The notes: a model not told the origin generated them from the sequence alone. 64,000 nt of DNA from Candidatus Cloacimonetes bacterium HGW-Cloacimonetes-1 (GCA_002841975.1 PHBQ01000017.1:33695-97694); one strand, 5' to 3'; positions 25,689 through 46,720 are shown, numbered from the stretch's first letter. Translations and numbers: made by a program.

Positions 25689-25839
25689 TACCGGAGCTTC
25701 TCAGACCTCGGTATTGGCTTGTATTTCTGCGGAGGATCGGCATCCTCCGGCTACGTGGTCTCTTAGCGGAGCTTGCTGAAGCTCCGTTTTGCTTTTTCTT
25801 TTTTGCTTTTTGCGGAGGATCGGCATCCTCCGGCTACGT
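25689..25839. repeat. Two tandem copies of a composite two-hairpin intergenic element (family CB)
   Basis: The unit is a cggagcttgctgaagctccg hairpin, a T-rich spacer and a gcggaggatcggcatcctccggctacg hairpin. The unit recurs at 42616-42677 and, diverged, at 46660-46720. A half copy is at about 56629-56646. Confidence 0.75.
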
Positions 25840-38756: not shown

Positions 38757-40718
38757 TTATACAGGTTTGATCACTGCCAGTACTTGTCCCTTGCCTACAT
38801 TATCTCCGGCAGTAAGGGGTAGTGAAACCACGATACCTTTGACGGGGCAGGGAATATTATTATACATCTTCATAGCTTCCAAGACCAGTATTGTCTCACC
38901 CAGTTCTATCGTATCACCCACTTGCTTTTCATATTTGACCAGCATGCCGGGCATTGGCGCATTGACTGAAGTTCCGCCCTCAACATTTACCACCGGAGCT
39001 GGTGCAGCAGGTTTGGGAGCCGGTGCCGCAGGGGCAACGGGCTTGACCGCAGCTGGAGCAGTGCTCACGATCCGCGGAGTTCCACCCTTTTCGTTTACTT
39101 CCACCAGGAAATAATCATCATCGACATAGACGTCAAATTGACGGATTCCTTCCGGCTTGGCAGGGGCGACTTTCTCGGATTTTTCGACCAACTTTCCGGC
39201 TTTTGCCTTTTCCATGAGTTCGAGTTCCAGCTTTGCCGCTTCCAGGGTCTTGGGTTTCATATCTTCCGGCATCGGTTCCTTGCCATACTTGATTTTGAGG
39301 AATTTCTTACCGGTGAGGTTGTATAGAGCTGTGATCAATTCATCATCGAGGTCTTTGGCAAGGTCTTTCATCTCGGCATGAACACCGGGCATGGCAGGTT
39401 CGAGCACATCACCGGGACGGCAGGTAATCGGCTTTTCACCACGGGGATATCCCACCAAAGCTCGGGCTTGGACGTCCGGATCCATTGGCAGTGTGGTTTT
39501 GCCATAAAGGCCGTAGCAAAGGTCCTTTACTTGTTCTGTAAACCGGGCATATTCACCGTCTTTGGTGTCAAAGAGGGCATTATTGACTGCCTGAATACCC
39601 ACGATCTGGCTGGTGGGTGTCACCAACGGAATCATTCCCAGATCCTTGCGGACTTTGGGGATTTCCTTGAACACATCATCCAGTTTGTCCAGTTCATCCA
39701 TCTGACGCAATTGATTTACCAGATTGGACAGCATTCCGCCCGGAGTCTGATGAATGATCACATCGGTATCGATGATGGAATATTTGGTATTATCGGCAAA
39801 TTGGAGGTATTTGGGAATATCTTTTTCCATTTCTTTGCCGATGGCATTGAGCAATTTGATATCAAGGCCGGTATCGCGATTGGTGCCCAAGAGGGTATTG
39901 ACCAAAGGCTCGACCGCAGGATGTGAGGTGCGATAGGCATAGGGAGCCATGCAAGTATCGATGATGTCGACACCGGCTTCGACGGCTTTGAGCAATGCCA
40001 GATCTCCCATCCCGGAGGTGAAATGCGTGTGCAAATGAATCGGTACCGCGACGTTGACTTTGAGTGCCCGTACCAGATTGTATGCATCATAAGGGGCTAC
40101 CAGGCCTGCCATATCTTTGATGCAGATCGAATCTGCACCCATATCTTCGAGGATTTTGGCTTTGTTTACATAATACTCGACGTTATATACATCCCCGCCC
40201 ATCCGTTGTTCGGTCAGCGAGTAGCAGATGGTTCCCTGAAAGTGTTTGCCGTTCTTTTTGATGATCTTGACGGCGGTTTCGAAATTGCGGAAGTCATTGA
40301 GTGCATCAAAGACGCGGAAAATATCGATCCCGTTATCGCAAGCTCTCTGCACAAAGGCTTCTACCACATCGTCTGCGTAGTTCTGATAGCCTACCAGGTT
40401 CTGTCCGCGGAGGAGCATCGAAAAAGGAGTATTCTTGATATACTTTTTGAGAGTGCGGATGCGTTCCCAAGGATCTTCACCCAGGTAACGGTGCATGGTA
40501 TCAAAGGTCGCACCACCCCATACTTCCATGGAATGGAACCCCACGGAATCCATCTGTTCTGCCACCTTGATCATGTCTTCGGTTCTGCCACGAGTCGCAA
40601 ATAGGGACTGGTGACCGTCACGGAAGGTCAGATCTTGAATCTTGATCGGATTAGCTGCTTTGGGGCGATTCGGCTCATAGCGCATCGCTGTCATTTCCAA
40701 GACGCCGTGTTTATCCAT
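38757..40718 (-). CDS. Carboxyltransferase 5S subunit (oxaloacetate decarboxylase alpha / pyruvate carboxylase B type) fused to a biotin carboxyl carrier domain
   Basis: [14 protein letters not shown]-like TIM barrel, Pro/Ala linker [22 protein letters not shown] and biotinyl-lysine motif VLEAMKMYN. Confidence 0.9.
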
Positions 40719-40730
40719 AAATAGCTCCTT

Positions 40731-40928
40731 TTATCTCGTTCTTTTGATTATTCTGCGTTGGGTGATATCCCGATATTGCATGGTCTGCGTCCTGCCATAG
40801 GCACTCCAAGGAGTGGGCAGGGTCGGGGCCACGGTCGGAACATACGTTTCTGTGGGTTCATTCGATAAATATGCAATGACACCGGAGAGTGCCGCCACTT
40901 GCTTTTTTCTATCTTCCATTTCCACCAT
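40731..40928 (-). CDS. Small hypothetical protein packed between the 12S and 5S carboxyltransferase genes (possible small subunit)
   Basis: ATG 40928 follows the 12S stop (40930-40932) by 1 nt. The product MVEMEDRKKQVAALSGVIAYLSNEP... is reminiscent of small decarboxylase/transcarboxylase accessory subunits. The longer track ORF (to 41000) would overlap the 12S gene. Confidence 0.45.
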   Translation of the reverse strand: MVEMEDRKKQVAALSGVIAYLSNEPTETYVPTVAPTLPTPWSAYGRTQTMQYRDITQRRIIKRTR

Positions 40929-40929
40929 C

Positions 40930-42483
40930 CTATACCGGGATGTTTCCATGTTTCTTGGGAGGTAGGCTTTCGCTCTTGGTACACAGCACTTCGAGGGCAT
41001 CGATCAGGCGTTTACGCGTCTCGGAAGGACGGATCACGGCATCGACATAGCCACGGGAGGCTGCTACATAAGGATTGTTGAACTGTTCTTCATAGATGCC
41101 GATCATCTCTGCCCGTTTGGCGACCTTGTCCGCGGCGGAATTGATCTCTTTGCGGAAGATGATATTGGCGGCACCTTGGGCACCCATCACTGCGATTTCT
41201 GCACCCGGCCAGGAAAAGACCATGTCTGCTCCCAAATGGCGGGAACTCATGGCGATGTACGAACCACCATAATCCTTGCGGGTCACCACTGTCAGCTTTG
41301 GCACTGTGGCTTCGGAATAGCACCACAAGAGCTTGGCTCCGTGACGAATGATGCCGTTCCATTCCTGATGCGTACCGGGCAAATAGCCGGGAACATCGAC
41401 CAGAGTGAGCAGCGGAATATTAAAAGAATCACAGAAACGGATAAAGCGGGTCGCCTTGTCCGAGGCATCTATGTCGAGGCATCCTGCCAGCACTGCGGGT
41501 TGGCTGGCGATAATCCCCACCACGCGTCCATTCAAACGGCAAAATCCCACCAGGATATTCTGTGCGAACAGCTCGTGAGGCTCAAAGAATGTACCGTTAT
41601 CCACAATACTGCGGATCACGTCACGCATGTTGTAGCTCATCCGCGGATCATCCGGAATGATGCTATCGAGTTCGGGGCACAAGCGCCAGGGATCGTCCGT
41701 AGGCTCGAGGCGCGGCGGATCTTCCATGTTGTTCGAAGGCAGGTAACTCAATAAAGTTTTGATCTGGTCTATGGCATCGGCATCGCTTTCACAGGCAAAG
41801 TGAGCATTTCCGCTCTTCGTGTTGTGCGCAATTGCTCCGCCCAACTCTTCCTGAGTGGTCTCTTCACCGGTAACGGTACGGATCACGTCCGGACCTGTGA
41901 TAAACATAAAACTGGTGTTTTTGACCATGAAGACATAGTCCGTCATGGCTGGTGAATATACGGCTCCCCCAGCACAGGGTCCCATGATCGCTGTGAGCTG
42001 TGGGATCACGCCACTGGCACGGGAATTGCGGAAAAAGATGTCACCATAACCACGCAGGGCATCAACGCCTTCCTGGATCCGGGCTCCACCCGAATCGTTG
42101 ATTCCCACCACCGGCACACCGGAGCGAAGTGCCAGATCCATCACCTTGCAGATCTTGGCGGCGTGCATTTCACCCAGGCTACCACCGCGGGCAGTGAAGT
42201 CCTGTGAAAATGCAAAGACCGGACGGCCATTCACCAGTCCGTGTCCTGTTACCACTCCATCCGAAGGGATTTCGATCTTTTCCATACCAAAATTGTCGCA
42301 ACGATGCTGGACAAACATATCCAGTTCACGAAAAGTCCCGGCATCAAATAGCAGATCCAGACGCTCGCGCGCCGTCAGCTTACCACCGTCATGTTGTTTT
42401 TGGATTGCTGCTGCTCCACCCATCTGCAAGATTTTTGCTTCTTTTTCGATGAGCTTGCTAATTGCATCTTTTCCAGATTGCAT
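40930..42483 (-). CDS. Methylmalonyl-CoA carboxyltransferase 12S subunit / propionyl-CoA carboxylase beta-type carboxyltransferase
   Basis: The sequence is typical of acyl-CoA carboxyltransferase ([51 protein letters not shown]). ATG 42483 is preceded by AAGGAG, so it is preferred over the track start at 42585. Confidence 0.9.
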
Positions 42484-42615
42484 ATCAACTCCTTTAAGCT
42501 GCTTGTATATCAATTTATTACAAATCAAGGTATAGGAATTTTCCTGTAGAGCTGTATCCCATATCTTTTCAGAATCGTCAAGCAAAATCTCTGGGAGGCT
42601 GTTGCACTCTTCGTA

Positions 42616-42962
42616 CCGGAGCTTGCTGAAGCTCCGATCTTTCTTCTTTTGCGGAGGATCGGCATCCTCCGGCTACGAAAAAGGTTCTGCCCACCGAGCT
42701 TGGGAGCGAGAACCTGCTCCCTCTCCAGTTCTGGAAGTCTGGGTCCCCAATCGTCAACTTGTTGGCTGTAGGTGTTTGGGGTGAAGAGAGCTGGGGTGAG
42801 TGAAGCCTAAGGTGGAGCGCAGCGGAACCTCAGGAAACACACACCCAACACAGTTTTAGTCCTGGAGGGGCGGCACAAACGTGGTTTGGGAAAAGGGCAG
42901 ACATGCAGGTCTGCCCCTATGGTAAACTCTGTGTTACTATAGCAGGAACGGCGTCCTGCTCG
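42616..42962. repeat. Mosaic repeat block on the left flank of the AT-rich island
   Basis: Its order is a CB two-hairpin unit (42616-42677), aacctgctccctctccagttctgg (42711-), gggaaaagggcagacatgcaggtctgcccct (42888-42918), gtgttactat, then aggaacggcgtcctgctc. The same modules occur in the same order at 46478-46656. Confidence 0.75.
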
Positions 42963-43125
42963 ATTTGGATTACCTTTGTTTCCGGAGTCGATCCAGGTTG
43001 TCGCTTTATCTCTGCCATGACAGGTTCGTTGTACCAAGGTCTATGCCCAGTATCCTCACGGGCTTGCCGCACTTAGATGACACAAACACGCTAGTCATAC
43101 AAATCTCCCAAAATCATATACCTCA

Positions 43126-44067
43126 TTACTGTGTTCTGGTAATTATCCAATTAGCCAACCCCGCTGACATCGCCAGTTTAGCAATCTCTTCCGCAAACAG
43201 TAAGTTCGCATTTGTATTAGCAGTTTCTTTTTTGTATTTGATCAGATTCTTAGCAGGGCTATGTGCGAAAAAGAAGAGTTTTCCATTGTCAGGCAACGCA
43301 TCTTTGTACTCTTCATATTCCTTTTTGGTCGCCCTAGATTTAACTTGAACCCATGCCCTATCTCCAGTTAATGGGTCAACTAAGTCAATATCTAATGTCT
43401 TCTGAGTTCCACCAACCTTTGAAACCCTTTCCCATCCCACATGGCGTATAATCAGATCAATGAGGAGCTCAAAATCGCTCCAAGTCAGGGATTGGATCAA
43501 GGGCATTAACGCCTTCTCAAGATCTTGAAAACACTCATTTGCCATGTCGTTGTGCTCTGTCCTGCGTCCATTGATTTTGCGAATAATGTAGTCTGTATCT
43601 GTTAAATCATACTCGCAAATTGTTCCAAGAAATCCTCTTTTTGCTGTTATCCGACCGTTGATATTGCTCATGTACAAGATGTTTCCATTAATGTCCCTAT
43701 CACTCCAACCAAGAGGAGATGATTTGATCTTCAGGTTTTCTGATATTTGCTCAATGTCTTTGTCGGCTTTGCACCACCACATTTTGTTGTCATGAAAAGT
43801 AATCCATATTGTCTCTGAATTAGCTGTATAGAAATACTTCACTTGTTTTACGTGATTTTTCGCTGTAGTTATGTTTGTTTTCATCCCATCGACGAAGTGT
43901 TTTATGACTCCATCCCACTTTTGATCTACACATAATTGATGATCCACCTCTCGATAATCGAGCATGACTTGACCATTGTTTCTGCACTTTTCAAAGAAAG
44001 AGCTTCCTTTACCAAGCCTAATAAATAGTGCATTTGATGCTGTTACTTCTTTGTCTCTTGTTTTCAT
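43126..44067 (-). CDS. Unknown N-terminal domain (~190 aa) fused to an Mrr-type PD-(D/E)xK restriction endonuclease domain
   Basis: The C-terminal block LTWSDFELLIDLIIRHVGWERVSKVGGTQKTLDIDLVDPLTGDRAWVQVKSR fits the Mrr_cat pattern (W.DFE.L ... D.D ... Q.K). I do not recognise the N-terminal half. Confidence 0.7.
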   Translation of the reverse strand: MKTRDKEVTASNALFIRLGKGSSFFEKCRNNGQVMLDYREVDHQLCVDQKWDGVIKHFVDGMKTNITTAKNHVKQVKYFYTANSETIWITFHDNKMWWCKADKDIEQISENLKIKSSPLGWSDRDINGNILYMSNINGRITAKRGFLGTICEYDLTDTDYIIRKINGRRTEHNDMANECFQDLEKALMPLIQSLTWSDFELLIDLIIRHVGWERVSKVGGTQKTLDIDLVDPLTGDRAWVQVKSRATKKEYEEYKDALPDNGKLFFFAHSPAKNLIKYKKETANTNANLLFAEEIAKLAMSAGLANWIITRTQ

Positions 44068-44107
44068 TATTACTCCTTTGTTTGCCTGGTTAATTGTAAC
44101 ATATTCT

Positions 44108-44854
44108 TTAGATCGTCCGCGCTTTTATGTGGTAGTCTATGCTTTTCATCCGACAGAAATCTATAACTATATCTACTGAATCATTATAGAAATCTTGAAA
44201 TCCCTTGTAGGCTGATACCAACTTATTATAGTGCAATCTCCCAAAGATAATCCTATCAGTGAAGGAAACTTGACTAAGTAAAGATCCCAGGTCTTGCTTA
44301 ACTATATTTGGTGTGGGATACGGCTCTATACTCACCCATGTTTTACAACCCATGTCGTGCAAGTTCTTCATGCTTGCCAATCGAGTGTGATAATCTGCAG
44401 AAAAGGGCTCGTACTGCTTTCTAAAGCCTTCATCGAAAGAAACCAAAGAAATGCCCCACTCATGCTTTCTATCAGACTTCGAAAGCTCGTGAGGGAGAAC
44501 TCCCTTAGTAAGAGCAGTGCATTTTATACCATAATGATCCAATAGCTTGATGATCTCCAGGCTCATTTCAGTTACTTCAGGATATCCATACATAAATGGG
44601 TCGGTGGTAAAGCAAAGATGCACGGATTTGATACTTTTCTGCTTCTTGGGAATCTCTTTCTTTAACAGATCGAGAGCGTTTTCAACGAGCTTGGGTTCCA
44701 GCCAATCTTGATAATCTTTTACCCTGCCGAATCTGCGAGCCATCATGTAAGCATAACAGGGATATGTGCAACCATGAGAACAACCCAACACGTGGTTAAT
44801 TGTGTAGTCGCCGTATTCAACACCGGTTTTGTATAGTAAGGTTTTTCTTATCAT
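44108..44854 (-). CDS. Radical-SAM-like TIM-barrel protein with a three-Cys motif (SPL/COG1533 or Gp37/Gp68 DUF5131 type)
   Basis: 248 aa. Cys triad GCSHGCTYPCYAY near the N-terminus. Downstream blocks HLCFTTDPF, ALTKGV, ISLVSFD and WVSIEPYP resemble SplB-like/Gp37-like proteins. The start lies 2 nt after the TcmP-like gene's stop. Confidence 0.65.
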   Translation of the reverse strand: MIRKTLLYKTGVEYGDYTINHVLGCSHGCTYPCYAYMMARRFGRVKDYQDWLEPKLVENALDLLKKEIPKKQKSIKSVHLCFTTDPFMYGYPEVTEMSLEIIKLLDHYGIKCTALTKGVLPHELSKSDRKHEWGISLVSFDEGFRKQYEPFSADYHTRLASMKNLHDMGCKTWVSIEPYPTPNIVKQDLGSLLSQVSFTDRIIFGRLHYNKLVSAYKGFQDFYNDSVDIVIDFCRMKSIDYHIKARTI

Positions 44855-44856
44855 GT

Positions 44857-45957
44857 TTAATAAATCTCAATTATGTCTTTTTTGGTCGGTTTACTGCTTT
44901 GCCTCATCGATGATACACGCACTATGTTCGCCAAATTGTTATTATACAGATTCAAAACAGCAAAAGATATGTCTTTGCCAAGATATGGTGTGGTATCTAT
45001 CATTTTATCAAGCAGTTCATCGAATGATAATCGTAACTTCTTGAAGTTAGTACAAATATACGATTCGATCTCTTGAACAGGATCTTCAATTAGATCGAAA
45101 ATGAAACTCTGGTTCTGATTTTTACCTATATACTCTATCTTTCCATGATTCAACTCGGCAAAACAAGCCTTCATGATCTCACATCCACGTATATGATTAG
45201 TTAAATGAATCATGTAAAAGTAAGTCCGATCTATCGCTGGAAAACAAATCCTATATGGGAGGACATATCTCGAGAACTGCTTGAATTGGTTCCTTATCAA
45301 GTCTATAATGCACGCTTCTCGTTCAATTCCGTGAAGCTGTTGGCAATCCCTCCATTCAGTGCAACCGAATAGTTCATCCATTGTGTTGTCAACTTTCCCC
45401 GAACTAATGCCTCTATTAACAGCATTGAACATAAAATTGAAATATACTTCGCTGTTTTTAACCTCCATTAGGCGTTTTATTGTATTTATCTTGATTTTAT
45501 ACCCATATGGATCAACTAAAAAGAAAGTAGGATATAGCTTCTTTCCTTCATTGCTAAGATTCGTAAGTAAACTGTTTATGTAAGTATCGAAATCATCATT
45601 GTATAACTCGTACTCGCAAATACAGTTGAAATACTTAAAAGCATGGGGGATGTTATCAGTACATCTCTTGTCGGTATCGAGTATTGTGATACAGCAATCT
45701 CTATCCAGAGTTCGCGCATTGTTTTCAATGACCTCTGCCGCTATTATCGGGCTACCTGGGTGCAGAACACTGTCCTTATCATACATACCACATCCCCCAA
45801 AACAATCGATGAAATTTAACGCACCTGCATGCCCCACTATTTTGACCCATTTATCGAAGTATGATTTGAAGACTTGATGCTTAATCATTGTCTGCTCCTC
45901 ATATACAAAAGCAAAATAGGGCTTTCCAGGGTATTTAATAACGTCGTGAGTCGCCAT
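44857..45957 (-). CDS. TcmP-like protein (three-Cys-motif partner protein, methyltransferase-like fold)
   Basis: 366 aa. The motif series FIDCFGGCGMY ... GSPIIAAEV ... FFLVDPYGYK ... FNFMFNAVNR ... LFGCTEWRD matches my recollection of TIGR04474. D-x-F-x-G-x-G resembles SAM-binding motif I. Confidence 0.6.
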   Translation of the reverse strand: MATHDVIKYPGKPYFAFVYEEQTMIKHQVFKSYFDKWVKIVGHAGALNFIDCFGGCGMYDKDSVLHPGSPIIAAEVIENNARTLDRDCCITILDTDKRCTDNIPHAFKYFNCICEYELYNDDFDTYINSLLTNLSNEGKKLYPTFFLVDPYGYKIKINTIKRLMEVKNSEVYFNFMFNAVNRGISSGKVDNTMDELFGCTEWRDCQQLHGIEREACIIDLIRNQFKQFSRYVLPYRICFPAIDRTYFYMIHLTNHIRGCEIMKACFAELNHGKIEYIGKNQNQSFIFDLIEDPVQEIESYICTNFKKLRLSFDELLDKMIDTTPYLGKDISFAVLNLYNNNLANIVRVSSMRQSSKPTKKDIIEIY

Positions 45958-45974
45958 AATTCTTACTAAACCTC

Positions 45975-46184
45975 CTAATTATCGAATGTCCTTGCTTTGC
46001 GCAGTCTATTTGCAGTAAGTTCCAGTAACCCGGCATAGAGAGCTTTGATCTCTGGCTCCGTCAATCCCAGGGCAGCAAAGACCACATCATCCAAGGCCTT
46101 TCTATCCGGCAAGGGATTGGCATTCATAAAAGAGCTGGACTCAGGATCAACCTGCAACTCATGAAAAATACTATTCATAATCAC
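45975..46184 (-). pseudogene. Probable C-terminal remnant of a DNA methyltransferase (type IIG / N6-MTase style tail)
   Basis: 69-aa ORF. The motif RKALDDVVFAALGLTEPEIKALYAGLLELTANRLRKA resembles the conserved C-terminal (E/K)LD..V....GLT..E...(V/L)Y.....L...R..KA tail of many R-M methyltransferases. No catalytic part exists upstream; repeats and a hairpin follow instead. Confidence 0.45.
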
Positions 46185-46359
46185 CTCTTATACTTATATC
46201 AATATTTTTCCCTATTTATGTCAAGTAATTTTAATGCTGCTCAAACCAGCTGAAGATGGTGGACCAACCGGCTAAAGCCAGCGTTACCCATACGGGGCGG
46301 TCACTTTCAGCGTTCTGCGGACTCTGGAACATCCCCATTCCATGAAGCTTCCTTATTGA

Positions 46360-46428
46360 GTTGTGGCTATGATGTGGCTATGCCGCCCTATGATTCATGG
46401 GGCGGCATAGCCACATCATAGCCACAAC
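46360..46428. repeat. 29-bp perfect inverted repeat (long hairpin) with an 11-nt loop
   Basis: gttgtggctatgatgtggctatgccgccc (46360-46388), loop tatgattcatg, then gggcggcatagccacatcatagccacaac (46400-46428). I verified the arms base by base as exact reverse complements. Confidence 0.9.
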
Positions 46429-46477
46429 TAAGTAAGGGAGCGGTAGTTTTCGGAAAGGCTGAATGCCGGGCTTGCAA

Positions 46478-46720
46478 AACCTGCTCCCTCTCCCGTTCTG
46501 GGAGTCGGGGTGTTTTGGGAAAAGGGCAGACACGCAGGTCTGCCCCTACTGGAAAATCCGTGTGAATCCGTTTCATCCATATTATCCGTGTTACTATTCC
46601 ATTATCATTTTTCTTTACTGCCATGACACTCAGTAGGATCGGCGTCCTGCTCTACAGCGTAGCGGAGCTTTCTGAAGCTCCGAGTCTTTTCCTTTAGTAG
46701 GATCGGAATCCTACTCTACG
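46478..46720. repeat. Mosaic repeat block on the right flank of the AT-rich island
   Basis: aacctgctccctctcccgttctgg, gggaaaagggcagacacgcaggtctgcccct, gtgttactat, aggatcggcgtcctgctc, then a diverged CB unit (gcggagctttctgaagctccg ... gtaggatcggaatcctactctacg). It has the same orientation as 42616-42962. Confidence 0.75.

Follow-up and report, generated by a model that had tools for sequence, protein, structure and literature searches.

We examined a 64,000-nucleotide stretch of DNA from Candidatus Cloacimonetes bacterium HGW-Cloacimonetes-1 (GCA_002841975.1, PHBQ01000017.1:33695-97694; here called the window) that harbors three adjacent minus-strand genes, all of whose products are annotated as hypothetical proteins in the source genome according to an exact-sequence look-up. 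They encode a TcmP-family protein of 366 amino acids, a radical S-adenosylmethionine (SAM) protein of 248 amino acids (referred to as rSAM), and a two-domain nuclease of the Mrr type with 313 amino acids. An earlier note on this DNA had proposed that the three genes form one modification and restriction system. Our comparison across genomes revealed that they are not one co-conserved system and that two independent modules, namely, the TcmP-rSAM pair and the nuclease, have been joined at this locus. We therefore favor, with about even confidence, the reading of a small defence islet that was gained by horizontal transfer and recombined from a probable modification pair and a stand-alone Mrr-type nuclease.

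The synteny of rSAM was analyzed in 80 loci fetched from species-representative genomes, out of at least 597 such loci, by calling open reading frames (ORFs) and iterated hidden Markov model (HMM) searches. The at least 597 loci, all at 59% identity or higher, are distributed over Cloacimonadota, Bacillota, Spirochaetota, Elusimicrobia, Nitrospirota, Alphaproteobacteria, Parcubacteria, and other groups. The fetched set comprised 77 loci of other species, with 74 assessable for TcmP and 72 for the strand of the gene downstream of the pair. A TcmP gene is located immediately upstream of rSAM and in the same orientation in 71/74 loci, and fusion proteins of TcmP and rSAM of about 640 amino acids were found as well (P0178, P0179, P0182, and P0184). 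The conserved synteny that the earlier note had expected of all three genes thus holds strongly for the pair alone. Exceptions to this pairing are rare: at one locus (L062, 1110-2216), a protein with HTH_3 and M78-peptidase (ImmA/IrrE-like) domains takes the place of TcmP directly upstream of rSAM, and at another (L055, 113-1564), a 483-amino-acid protein of no assigned family precedes rSAM.

For the trio as a whole, the expectation of synteny failed. The nuclease of the window was found in 0/77 of the other-species rSAM loci and, conversely, 80 metagenomic loci carrying nuclease relatives contained rSAM in no case and TcmP in one. According to individual look-ups, relatives of the nuclease stand alone beside GmrSD, HsdR, Mrr, DUF4145 with AIPR, or type ISP genes, and even those with 65% and 71% identity have no adjoining TcmP-rSAM pair. 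Outside the source lineage, the full trio was seen in no more than one close Cloacimonadota relative. These distribution data speak against the nuclease as a dedicated component of the pair. In 28/72 loci, the gene downstream of the pair is located on the opposite strand, so that the pair stands alone there; the neighbor at this position varies and may encode a type III Mod, Fic, GNAT, a glycosyltransferase, a terminase small subunit, or unknown proteins. The lone TcmP among the nuclease loci (L127, 2712-9019) has a canonical DUF5131 partner with a Cx6Cx2C motif, and this pair is located 1.2 kb downstream of the nuclease relative; the same defence island also holds a DUF262/GmrSD-like gene.

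Assignment of the 366-amino-acid protein to TcmP, proposed in the earlier note, was confirmed by a match to TIGR04474 with 151.5 bits against a cutoff of 53 (E = 4e-44, 260/263 profile positions covered), and the strings quoted in its support (FIDCFGGCG, GSP, FFLVDPYGY, and LFGCTEW) are all present in the protein. It also matches the PADLOC model PDC-M30A with 64 bits. An AlphaFold2 (AF2) model was obtained at a predicted local distance difference test (pLDDT) score of 89.1 and a predicted template modeling (TM) score (pTM) of 0.88, and a Foldseek search of the PDB with this model returned 78 matches at E ≤ 0.001, essentially all of them class-I SAM-dependent enzymes, with the best TM-score for RlmJ (7p9i; 0.42/0.54). 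By profile and predicted structure, the protein is a bona fide TIGR04474 member with a class-I methyltransferase fold, and the proposed SAM-binding, methyltransferase-like nature is supported at the level of the modeled fold. A search of the BFVD with the model yielded generic methyltransferase folds only, and a sequence-profile search of the PDB with the TcmP family gave no match even at E values of 1 to 10.

RlmJ, the 23S rRNA m6A2030 methyltransferase (PDB 4BLU and 7P9I), shares with TcmP not only the class-I methyltransferase fold but also the order of motifs, i.e., K-H near the N terminus, D-x-x-x-G-x-G-x-Y, G-S-P-(L/I)-I-A, and D-P-aromatic after strand beta-4. In TcmP of the window these correspond to K26-H27, D51-CFGGCG57-MY, G68-SPIIA, and D149-PYG, the last in place of DPPY; motif IV of TcmP thus reads D-P-[YF]-G rather than D-P-P-Y. 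Further differences are the helical insert of RlmJ, which is missing in TcmP, and the C-terminal winged helix-turn-helix (wHTH) and the rSAM partner, which TcmP adds. The wHTH was detected as GMT-wHTH (PF22560) in 24/25 relatives (best E value, 2.3e-10). As hhalign aligned motif I alone (E = 0.07), we do not assign TcmP to the RlmJ family and treat the relation to RlmJ as a resemblance.

The 248-amino-acid protein exceeds the gathering score of PF04055 (Radical_SAM; 33.8 bits versus 29.5) over residues 19 to 188. Three NCBIfam families, Rv2578c, PA0069, and mobile-pair-B, match it at E values of 1e-11 to 6e-10 over residues ~16 to 196, with 39 to 44 bits and thus far under the equivalog cutoffs of 360 to 430. 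For Rv2578c and PA0069 the scores are 43 to 44 bits versus cutoffs of 430 and 360, respectively; the protein is a homologue and not a member. On these profile matches, the protein is a true radical-SAM protein homologous to COG1533-type families. The earlier note had offered either such a relationship or membership in the phage-associated DUF5131 family (Gp37/Gp68), of which the first stands and the second does not: PF07505 (DUF5131) scored 22 bits versus 28.9 and aligned only to the N-terminal ~80 residues (profile positions 2 to 85 of 243), and the PADLOC models PDC-M30B and PDC-M41B likewise matched only the N-terminal ~80 residues with 24 to 26 bits. By profile comparison, rSAM is hence related to DUF5131 but not a member of it.

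An alignment of 22 rSAM sequences (67% mean column identity) revealed an invariant GCxHGCx[YF]PCYA motif, which corresponds to a Cx3Cx3C arrangement of C25, C29, and C33. The proline before the third cysteine is invariant in all 22 relatives, and the canonical spacing Cx3Cx2C is not matched. DUF5131, in comparison, has a Cx6Cx2C spacing, and deviations from the canonical spacing have been described within the radical-SAM superfamily (PMC9477430). With spore photoproduct lyase (SPL) and other COG1533 enzymes, including Rv2578c, PA0069, and "radical SAM mobile pair B," rSAM shares domain-level homology, an N-terminal cluster, and the GCxHGC start of the motif; it differs by one extra residue in the cluster motif, by its smaller size (248 amino acids), and by its obligate pairing with TcmP. 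The family is large, with 7,581 homologues matched.

Several relatives of rSAM are labeled "DNA repair photolyase" (COG1533) by the Joint Genome Institute (JGI), which, together with RlmJ as the best TM-score for TcmP, would be in line with a housekeeping or repair role, either in DNA repair, with rSAM as an SPL-like lyase and its partner as a helper, or as an RlmJ-related rRNA/tRNA modification pair. Such a role appears very improbable, since the distribution of the pair is sporadic and indicative of horizontal transfer, the genes lie in the lowest-GC island of the window, the flanks differ between loci and contain many genes of defence systems and mobile elements, the partner TcmP evolves very fast, and the PDB sequence-profile search with rSAM returned no match to SPL.

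The two partners are conserved to very different degrees. Over the same 71 loci (among L008 to L087), the median pairwise identity is 64% for rSAM and 26% for TcmP, and for half of the TcmP comparisons no alignment extends over more than half of the length. Across these 71 very divergent TcmP partners, K26, Y33, D51, G57, G68, D149, P150, and R182 are nevertheless conserved at 85% or more. The difference in identity, the retained residues, and the wHTH point to a conserved catalytic subunit combined with a specificity subunit that diversifies but remains enzymatically competent, and this split between catalysis and specificity, read from the conservation asymmetry, suggests a two-enzyme module for nucleic acid modification. 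According to the model that we propose, TcmP would bind nucleic acid, most likely DNA, and present the target base in its D-P-aromatic-G pocket. The tightly bound rSAM, with its Cx3Cx3C cluster, would cleave SAM to a 5'-deoxyadenosyl radical and most likely perform C-H chemistry on the presented nucleotide, which would leave the DNA covalently marked. In this division of labor, target specificity would come from the fast-evolving TcmP and the chemistry from the ultra-conserved rSAM. If the pair indeed writes a radical-derived mark on DNA, this would represent a new epigenetic chemistry.

The same asymmetry of 64% versus 26% identity is typical of a diversifying sensor with a conserved effector. 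Along with the defence-island setting and the existence of radical-SAM defence enzymes, e.g., OpnA of Ophion, it would also fit a sensor-effector defence, in which the hypervariable TcmP senses a phage component and rSAM either has a universal nucleotide or small molecule as its substrate, in a viperin-like manner, or damages nucleic acid indiscriminately. We consider this improbable, as TcmP keeps SAM-binding and motif IV-like residues as well as the wHTH, which argues for an enzyme acting on nucleic acid and not for a pure sensor, and as rSAM is homologous to COG1533-type families.

Analysis of the surroundings showed that defence islands harbor the pair and that restriction-modification (R-M) operons of type III, type IIG, or an ISP-like type often include it. 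Type III, type IIG plus SNF2, or ISP-like R-M genes were found within five genes of the pair in 19/77 loci. In a metagenome-assembled genome (MAG) of Treponema (L057, 306-7398), the order is PIN, type III Mod, TcmP, rSAM, DUF2442, and type III Res, with the pair inserted between mod and res, and in L036 the genes are arranged as Mod, Res, TcmP, and rSAM. Further neighbors include SoFic, AIPR, and several PADLOC candidate matches. The foreign-looking character of the DNA and its defence-island setting, both suggested by the earlier note, were corroborated. Upstream of the pair, a PLD(HKD)-SNF2 helicase and an MmeI-like type IIG methyltransferase/restriction endonuclease are encoded in L005 to L007, L008, L011, L014, L017, and L082. 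This upstream set matches the PADLOC models DrmD, DrmMI, and "HKD+Snf2" and, judged by these matches, may represent a system of the DISARM-like or type IIG-helicase kind that is linked to the pair.

A more specific proposal follows the model outlined above one step further: the pair may install a new radical-SAM-dependent, sequence-specific DNA modification as a second, non-methyl mark that plugs into R-M systems methylating one strand only (type III, IIG, or ISP) and that is read or complemented here by the Mrr-type nuclease. We regard this as possible but rather unlikely; if true, the pair could explain the extension of some R-M systems.

Mobile-element genes were also observed close to the pair, i.e., serine recombinase or Mob_Pre genes in 10/77 loci, integrases in others, and a terminase small-subunit gene directly downstream of the pair in L049. 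These neighbors, as well as the spread of the family across phyla at 59% identity or more, could indicate an orphan modification module that is carried as anti-restriction cargo and protects the DNA of the mobile element from host restriction, instead of serving host defence. This has little probability in our view, considering that searches of 50,697 phage and 72,556 plasmid records with rSAM returned only two metagenomic phage contigs and one distant plasmid match and that roughly one locus in four has the pair in an operon with a complete R-M system. As the phage and plasmid collections were almost empty of rSAM, a phage-borne origin of this protein, considered in the earlier note, was not supported either.

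The third gene of the trio encodes a protein in which residues ~190 to 313 form an Mrr-type PD-(D/E)xK core with an intact catalytic set (E200...D226...Q241-x-K243), preceded by a conserved, Trp-rich alpha/beta domain (residues ~1 to 185). Across relatives, no variation was seen at E200, D226, or Q241, and conservation of K243 reaches 90% or more. The earlier note had described a clear Mrr_cat domain; the sequence from the window itself stays below the threshold of PF04471 (18.9 bits versus 21, profile positions 1 to 57 of 115), whereas 21/21 close relatives (best E value, 1.8e-6) and 36/41 distant ones (best E value, 8.6e-8) match the profile. The assignment as an Mrr-type nuclease, as judged from these profile matches, is therefore solid at the family level. 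Weak matches were also found to the PADLOC single-gene candidate PDC-S02. An exhaustive profile search returned 1,604 representative clusters, including 529 with E ≤ 1e-30, with proteins mostly of 300 to 320 amino acids, and thereby identified a large, uncharacterized family of two-domain Mrr-type nucleases.

The AF2 model of the nuclease (pLDDT, 88.5) gave its best PDB matches to MspJI, NucS/EndoMS, and AspBHI (E = 2e-4 to 3e-3), all of which consist of an N-terminal DNA recognition domain followed by a PD-(D/E)xK domain. MspJI ranked first in the Foldseek search, with E = 2.3e-4 over 331 aligned columns, and NucS/EndoMS scored similarly. Compared to Mrr and the type IV enzymes MspJI and AspBHI, the C-terminal Mrr-type (E)-D-QxK core behind an N-terminal domain is alike, but the N-terminal domain is neither Mrr_N nor SRA according to Pfam. 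By analogy with Mrr and MspJI, the protein is probably a type IV-like restriction enzyme, the second module in the preferred reading, which would act on its own, use its N-terminal domain as a sensor, and cut foreign, modified DNA. Restriction of unmodified invader DNA, as had been suggested, would be a poor fit to a modeled fold whose best matches include the modification-dependent MspJI and AspBHI.

An operon that combines a DNA modifier with a nuclease dependent on this modification has a precedent in Ambrosia, which consists of a methyltransferase and a type IV HNH nuclease aimed at the system's own modification (bioRxiv 10.1101/2025.09.30.679545). Both roles are predicted by analogy for the window as well; however, the enzyme families are wholly unlike, Ambrosia possesses dedicated regulators, and modifier and nuclease are not co-conserved in our case. 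An Ambrosia-like suicide response, in which the pair would modify DNA upon infection and the nuclease would cleave the marked DNA, could draw on the MspJI/AspBHI-like architecture of the nuclease and on its position next to a putative modifier with which it is probably co-transcribed. It nonetheless appears highly improbable to us, given the same lack of co-conservation, the lack of a regulator or sensor gene within the transferred block, and the lethality that constitutive co-expression would cause unless it is controlled.

The origin of the arrangement in the window could be reconstructed from DNA comparisons with related loci. A block of 3.2 kb comprising the trio, a gene remnant upstream of TcmP, and ~170 bp beyond the nuclease shares 79% DNA identity (blastn) with a relative's contig (L097/L098), where it is flanked by an EcoO109I-type R-M system on one side and by peptidase genes on the other; in the window, the neighbors are carboxyltransferase genes. 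Homology to a sister Cloacimonadota locus (L014) covers the remnant, TcmP, and rSAM and terminates at the 3' end of rSAM (44122), and homology to loci that carry only the nuclease (L099 and L088) begins ~10 nt upstream of the nuclease ATG. In these alignments, the breaks in homology fall exactly at gene boundaries. The remnant, an ORF of 69 amino acids, is 40% identical over 42 amino acids (E = 5e-8) to residues 1120 to 1161 of a 1,163-amino-acid MmeI-like type IIG enzyme of L017 and also shows a weak PADLOC match to a type I specificity subunit. The methyltransferase remnant that the earlier note had placed beside the trio is therefore real and represents the C-terminal end of a type IIG enzyme. 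In L005 to L007, the intact order is PLD-SNF2 helicase, MmeI/Eco57I type IIG methyltransferase, TcmP, and rSAM, and an unrelated protein of 330 to 375 amino acids occupies the third position after rSAM in sister loci. Because of this order, the type IIG remnant, and the breaks at the 3' end of rSAM and the 5' side of the nuclease, the locus in the window reads, on comparative evidence, as a decayed derivative that has lost the R-M genes upstream and received a nuclease cassette in place of its former third gene.

The alternative third-position protein of ~360 amino acids is a separate gene after rSAM in L005 and L017 and is fused in-frame to rSAM in L014 (8001-9833) and L008 (7989-9857), giving products of 610 and 622 amino acids. 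It has no Pfam match and contains a conserved PDW...IEVVT..K stretch, maybe a nuclease motif; a comparison with the nuclease family of the window by hhalign showed no relationship. The fusion indicates that the third position can be tied to the pair and thus speaks for a single three-gene R-M-like system, in which TcmP-rSAM would modify host DNA and the nuclease would either cut unmodified invader DNA or serve as the effector of the pair. The compact, co-oriented arrangement of the three genes, the ribosome binding site in front of the nuclease, and the recurrence of the trio with the remnant as a block at a different site point in the same direction. Weighed against the separate distributions of pair and nuclease in both locus sets, the opposite-strand downstream genes, the close nuclease relatives without a pair, recombination junctions exactly at gene boundaries, and a nuclease fold that resembles modification-dependent rather than modification-blocked enzymes, such a system seems improbable.

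Several observations weigh against the islet of two independent modules as we describe it. The trio and the remnant move as one 3.2-kb block found at two genomic sites at least, and rSAM is fused to the third gene in sister loci, both of which suggest that the third position may matter functionally. Joint transfer, juxtaposition, and likely co-transcription leave some room for coupling between the nuclease and the pair. With regard to the pair, sequence-level support for the likeness of TcmP to RlmJ is weak: the TM-scores are those given above, and the hhalign alignment of motif I extends over 21 columns. The COG1533-like label of rSAM is based on sub-cutoff NCBIfam matches, and a sequence-profile search of the PDB with the rSAM family gave 0 matches at E ≤ 1. 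The pair could also act on RNA, in view of the rRNA substrate of RlmJ, or on a small molecule. The nuclease resembles MspJI to a modest degree (E = 2e-4 and TMq = 0.30), and its N-terminal domain, like that of its relatives, gave no match in Pfam.

TcmP/three-Cys pairs have been named since TIGRFAMs. In PADLOC, such pairs are catalogued as the untested candidates PDC-M30 and PDC-M41. The statement of the earlier note that no characterized system has this three-gene composition holds, with the addition that pairs of this type are already listed under these two names. In the literature searched, we found no functional study of any TcmP/three-Cys pair or of such a trio; the only mentions of TcmP there were in lists of prophage genes and as a neighbor of Hna in S. 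meliloti. The known pairs of TcmP with DUF5131 (Gp37/Gp68; TIGR04474 plus PF07505) resemble the one described here in that TcmP is located directly upstream of a three-Cys Fe-S/SAM-type enzyme and that both kinds occur in defence islands and prophages, with a canonical example in L127. They differ in the partner, which here has a Cx3Cx3C motif, scores above the PF04055 threshold, and shows a closer relation to COG1533-type families, in contrast to the Cx6Cx2C motif of DUF5131. Judged from its sequence, the novelty lies in this partner enzyme, a PF04055, COG1533-type protein with Cx3Cx3C instead of DUF5131. With thousands of members, at least 597 species-level loci in many phyla, and ~64% identity, the rSAM family is widespread. 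The supposed three-gene system is recast here as two testable modules, and the pair itself is a worthwhile experimental target.

TABLE 1 Positions of the islet genes, the transferred block, and the flanking repeats in the 64,000-nucleotide window
Feature	Coordinates	Strand	Basis
TcmP gene, 366 aa	44857-45957	minus	ORF call and family scan
Radical-SAM (rSAM) gene, 248 aa	44108-44854	minus	ORF call and family scan
Two-domain nuclease gene, 313 aa	43126-44067	minus	ORF call and family scan
69-aa ORF, remnant of a type IIG enzyme	45975-46184	minus	Pairwise match to relative's enzyme
3.2-kb transferred block (remnant, TcmP, rSAM, nuclease, ~170 bp beyond)	42954-46154	no strand	blastn
Right-flank mosaic of short REP-like hairpin modules	42612-42964	no strand	Repeat families D1-D5 and direct reading
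Left-flank mosaic, REP-like hairpin modules as in the right flank	46478-46719	no strand	Repeat comparison

The layout of the locus agrees with the earlier description (Table 1). The three ORFs are intact and co-oriented on the minus strand, with intergenic gaps of 2 nt between TcmP and rSAM and 40 nt between rSAM and the nuclease, and a good Shine-Dalgarno sequence (AAAGGAG) is located 6 nt before the nuclease ATG. The gap of 40 nt suggests co-transcription of the nuclease with the pair, and the three genes are probably co-transcribed here. A promoter and terminator scan gave fewer matches than shuffled sequence and hence says nothing on operon structure. The AT richness of the island, previously judged from hand counts, was borne out: the GC content of the three genes is 0.37 to 0.41 versus 0.50 to 0.52 in the flanking carboxyltransferase genes, and the island is the 3-kb stretch with the lowest GC content of the window (0.388 versus a window mean of 0.472, standard deviation of 0.022). 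A scan of the island and its flanks against Rfam yielded sub-threshold hairpin look-alikes only, and no tRNA genes are present near the island.

The mosaic repeats on both sides of the island, noted before, are real but are not island-specific terminal repeats. They consist of dispersed hairpin modules resembling repetitive extragenic palindromes (REP) that recur in mosaic order in intergenic regions, i.e., in both flanks and at ~25733-25829 (near 25.73 to 25.83 kb). The module families are GGGCAGAC..GTCTGCCC, CGGAGCTT.CTGAAGCTCCG, and AGGATCGGCRTCCT, each of which occurs far above chance expectation. Flanking direct repeats as the ends of the island were rejected, since the modules also occur near 25.7 kb and the block ends (42954 and 46154) lie inside them. 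A near-perfect palindrome with 47-nt arms, 91% complementarity, and a 1-nt spacer was observed in the intergenic region just outside the transferred block (46347-46441), for which Rfam yields only sub-threshold miRNA-precursor look-alikes. On one side, the island is bordered by a set of genes for a biotin-dependent carboxyltransferase (38757-42585), comprising a 12S-like Carboxyl_trans gene and a 5S-like HMGL/PYC_OADA/biotinyl gene, and on the other side by GNAT and alanine-racemase-like genes, so that the surroundings represent ordinary core metabolism.

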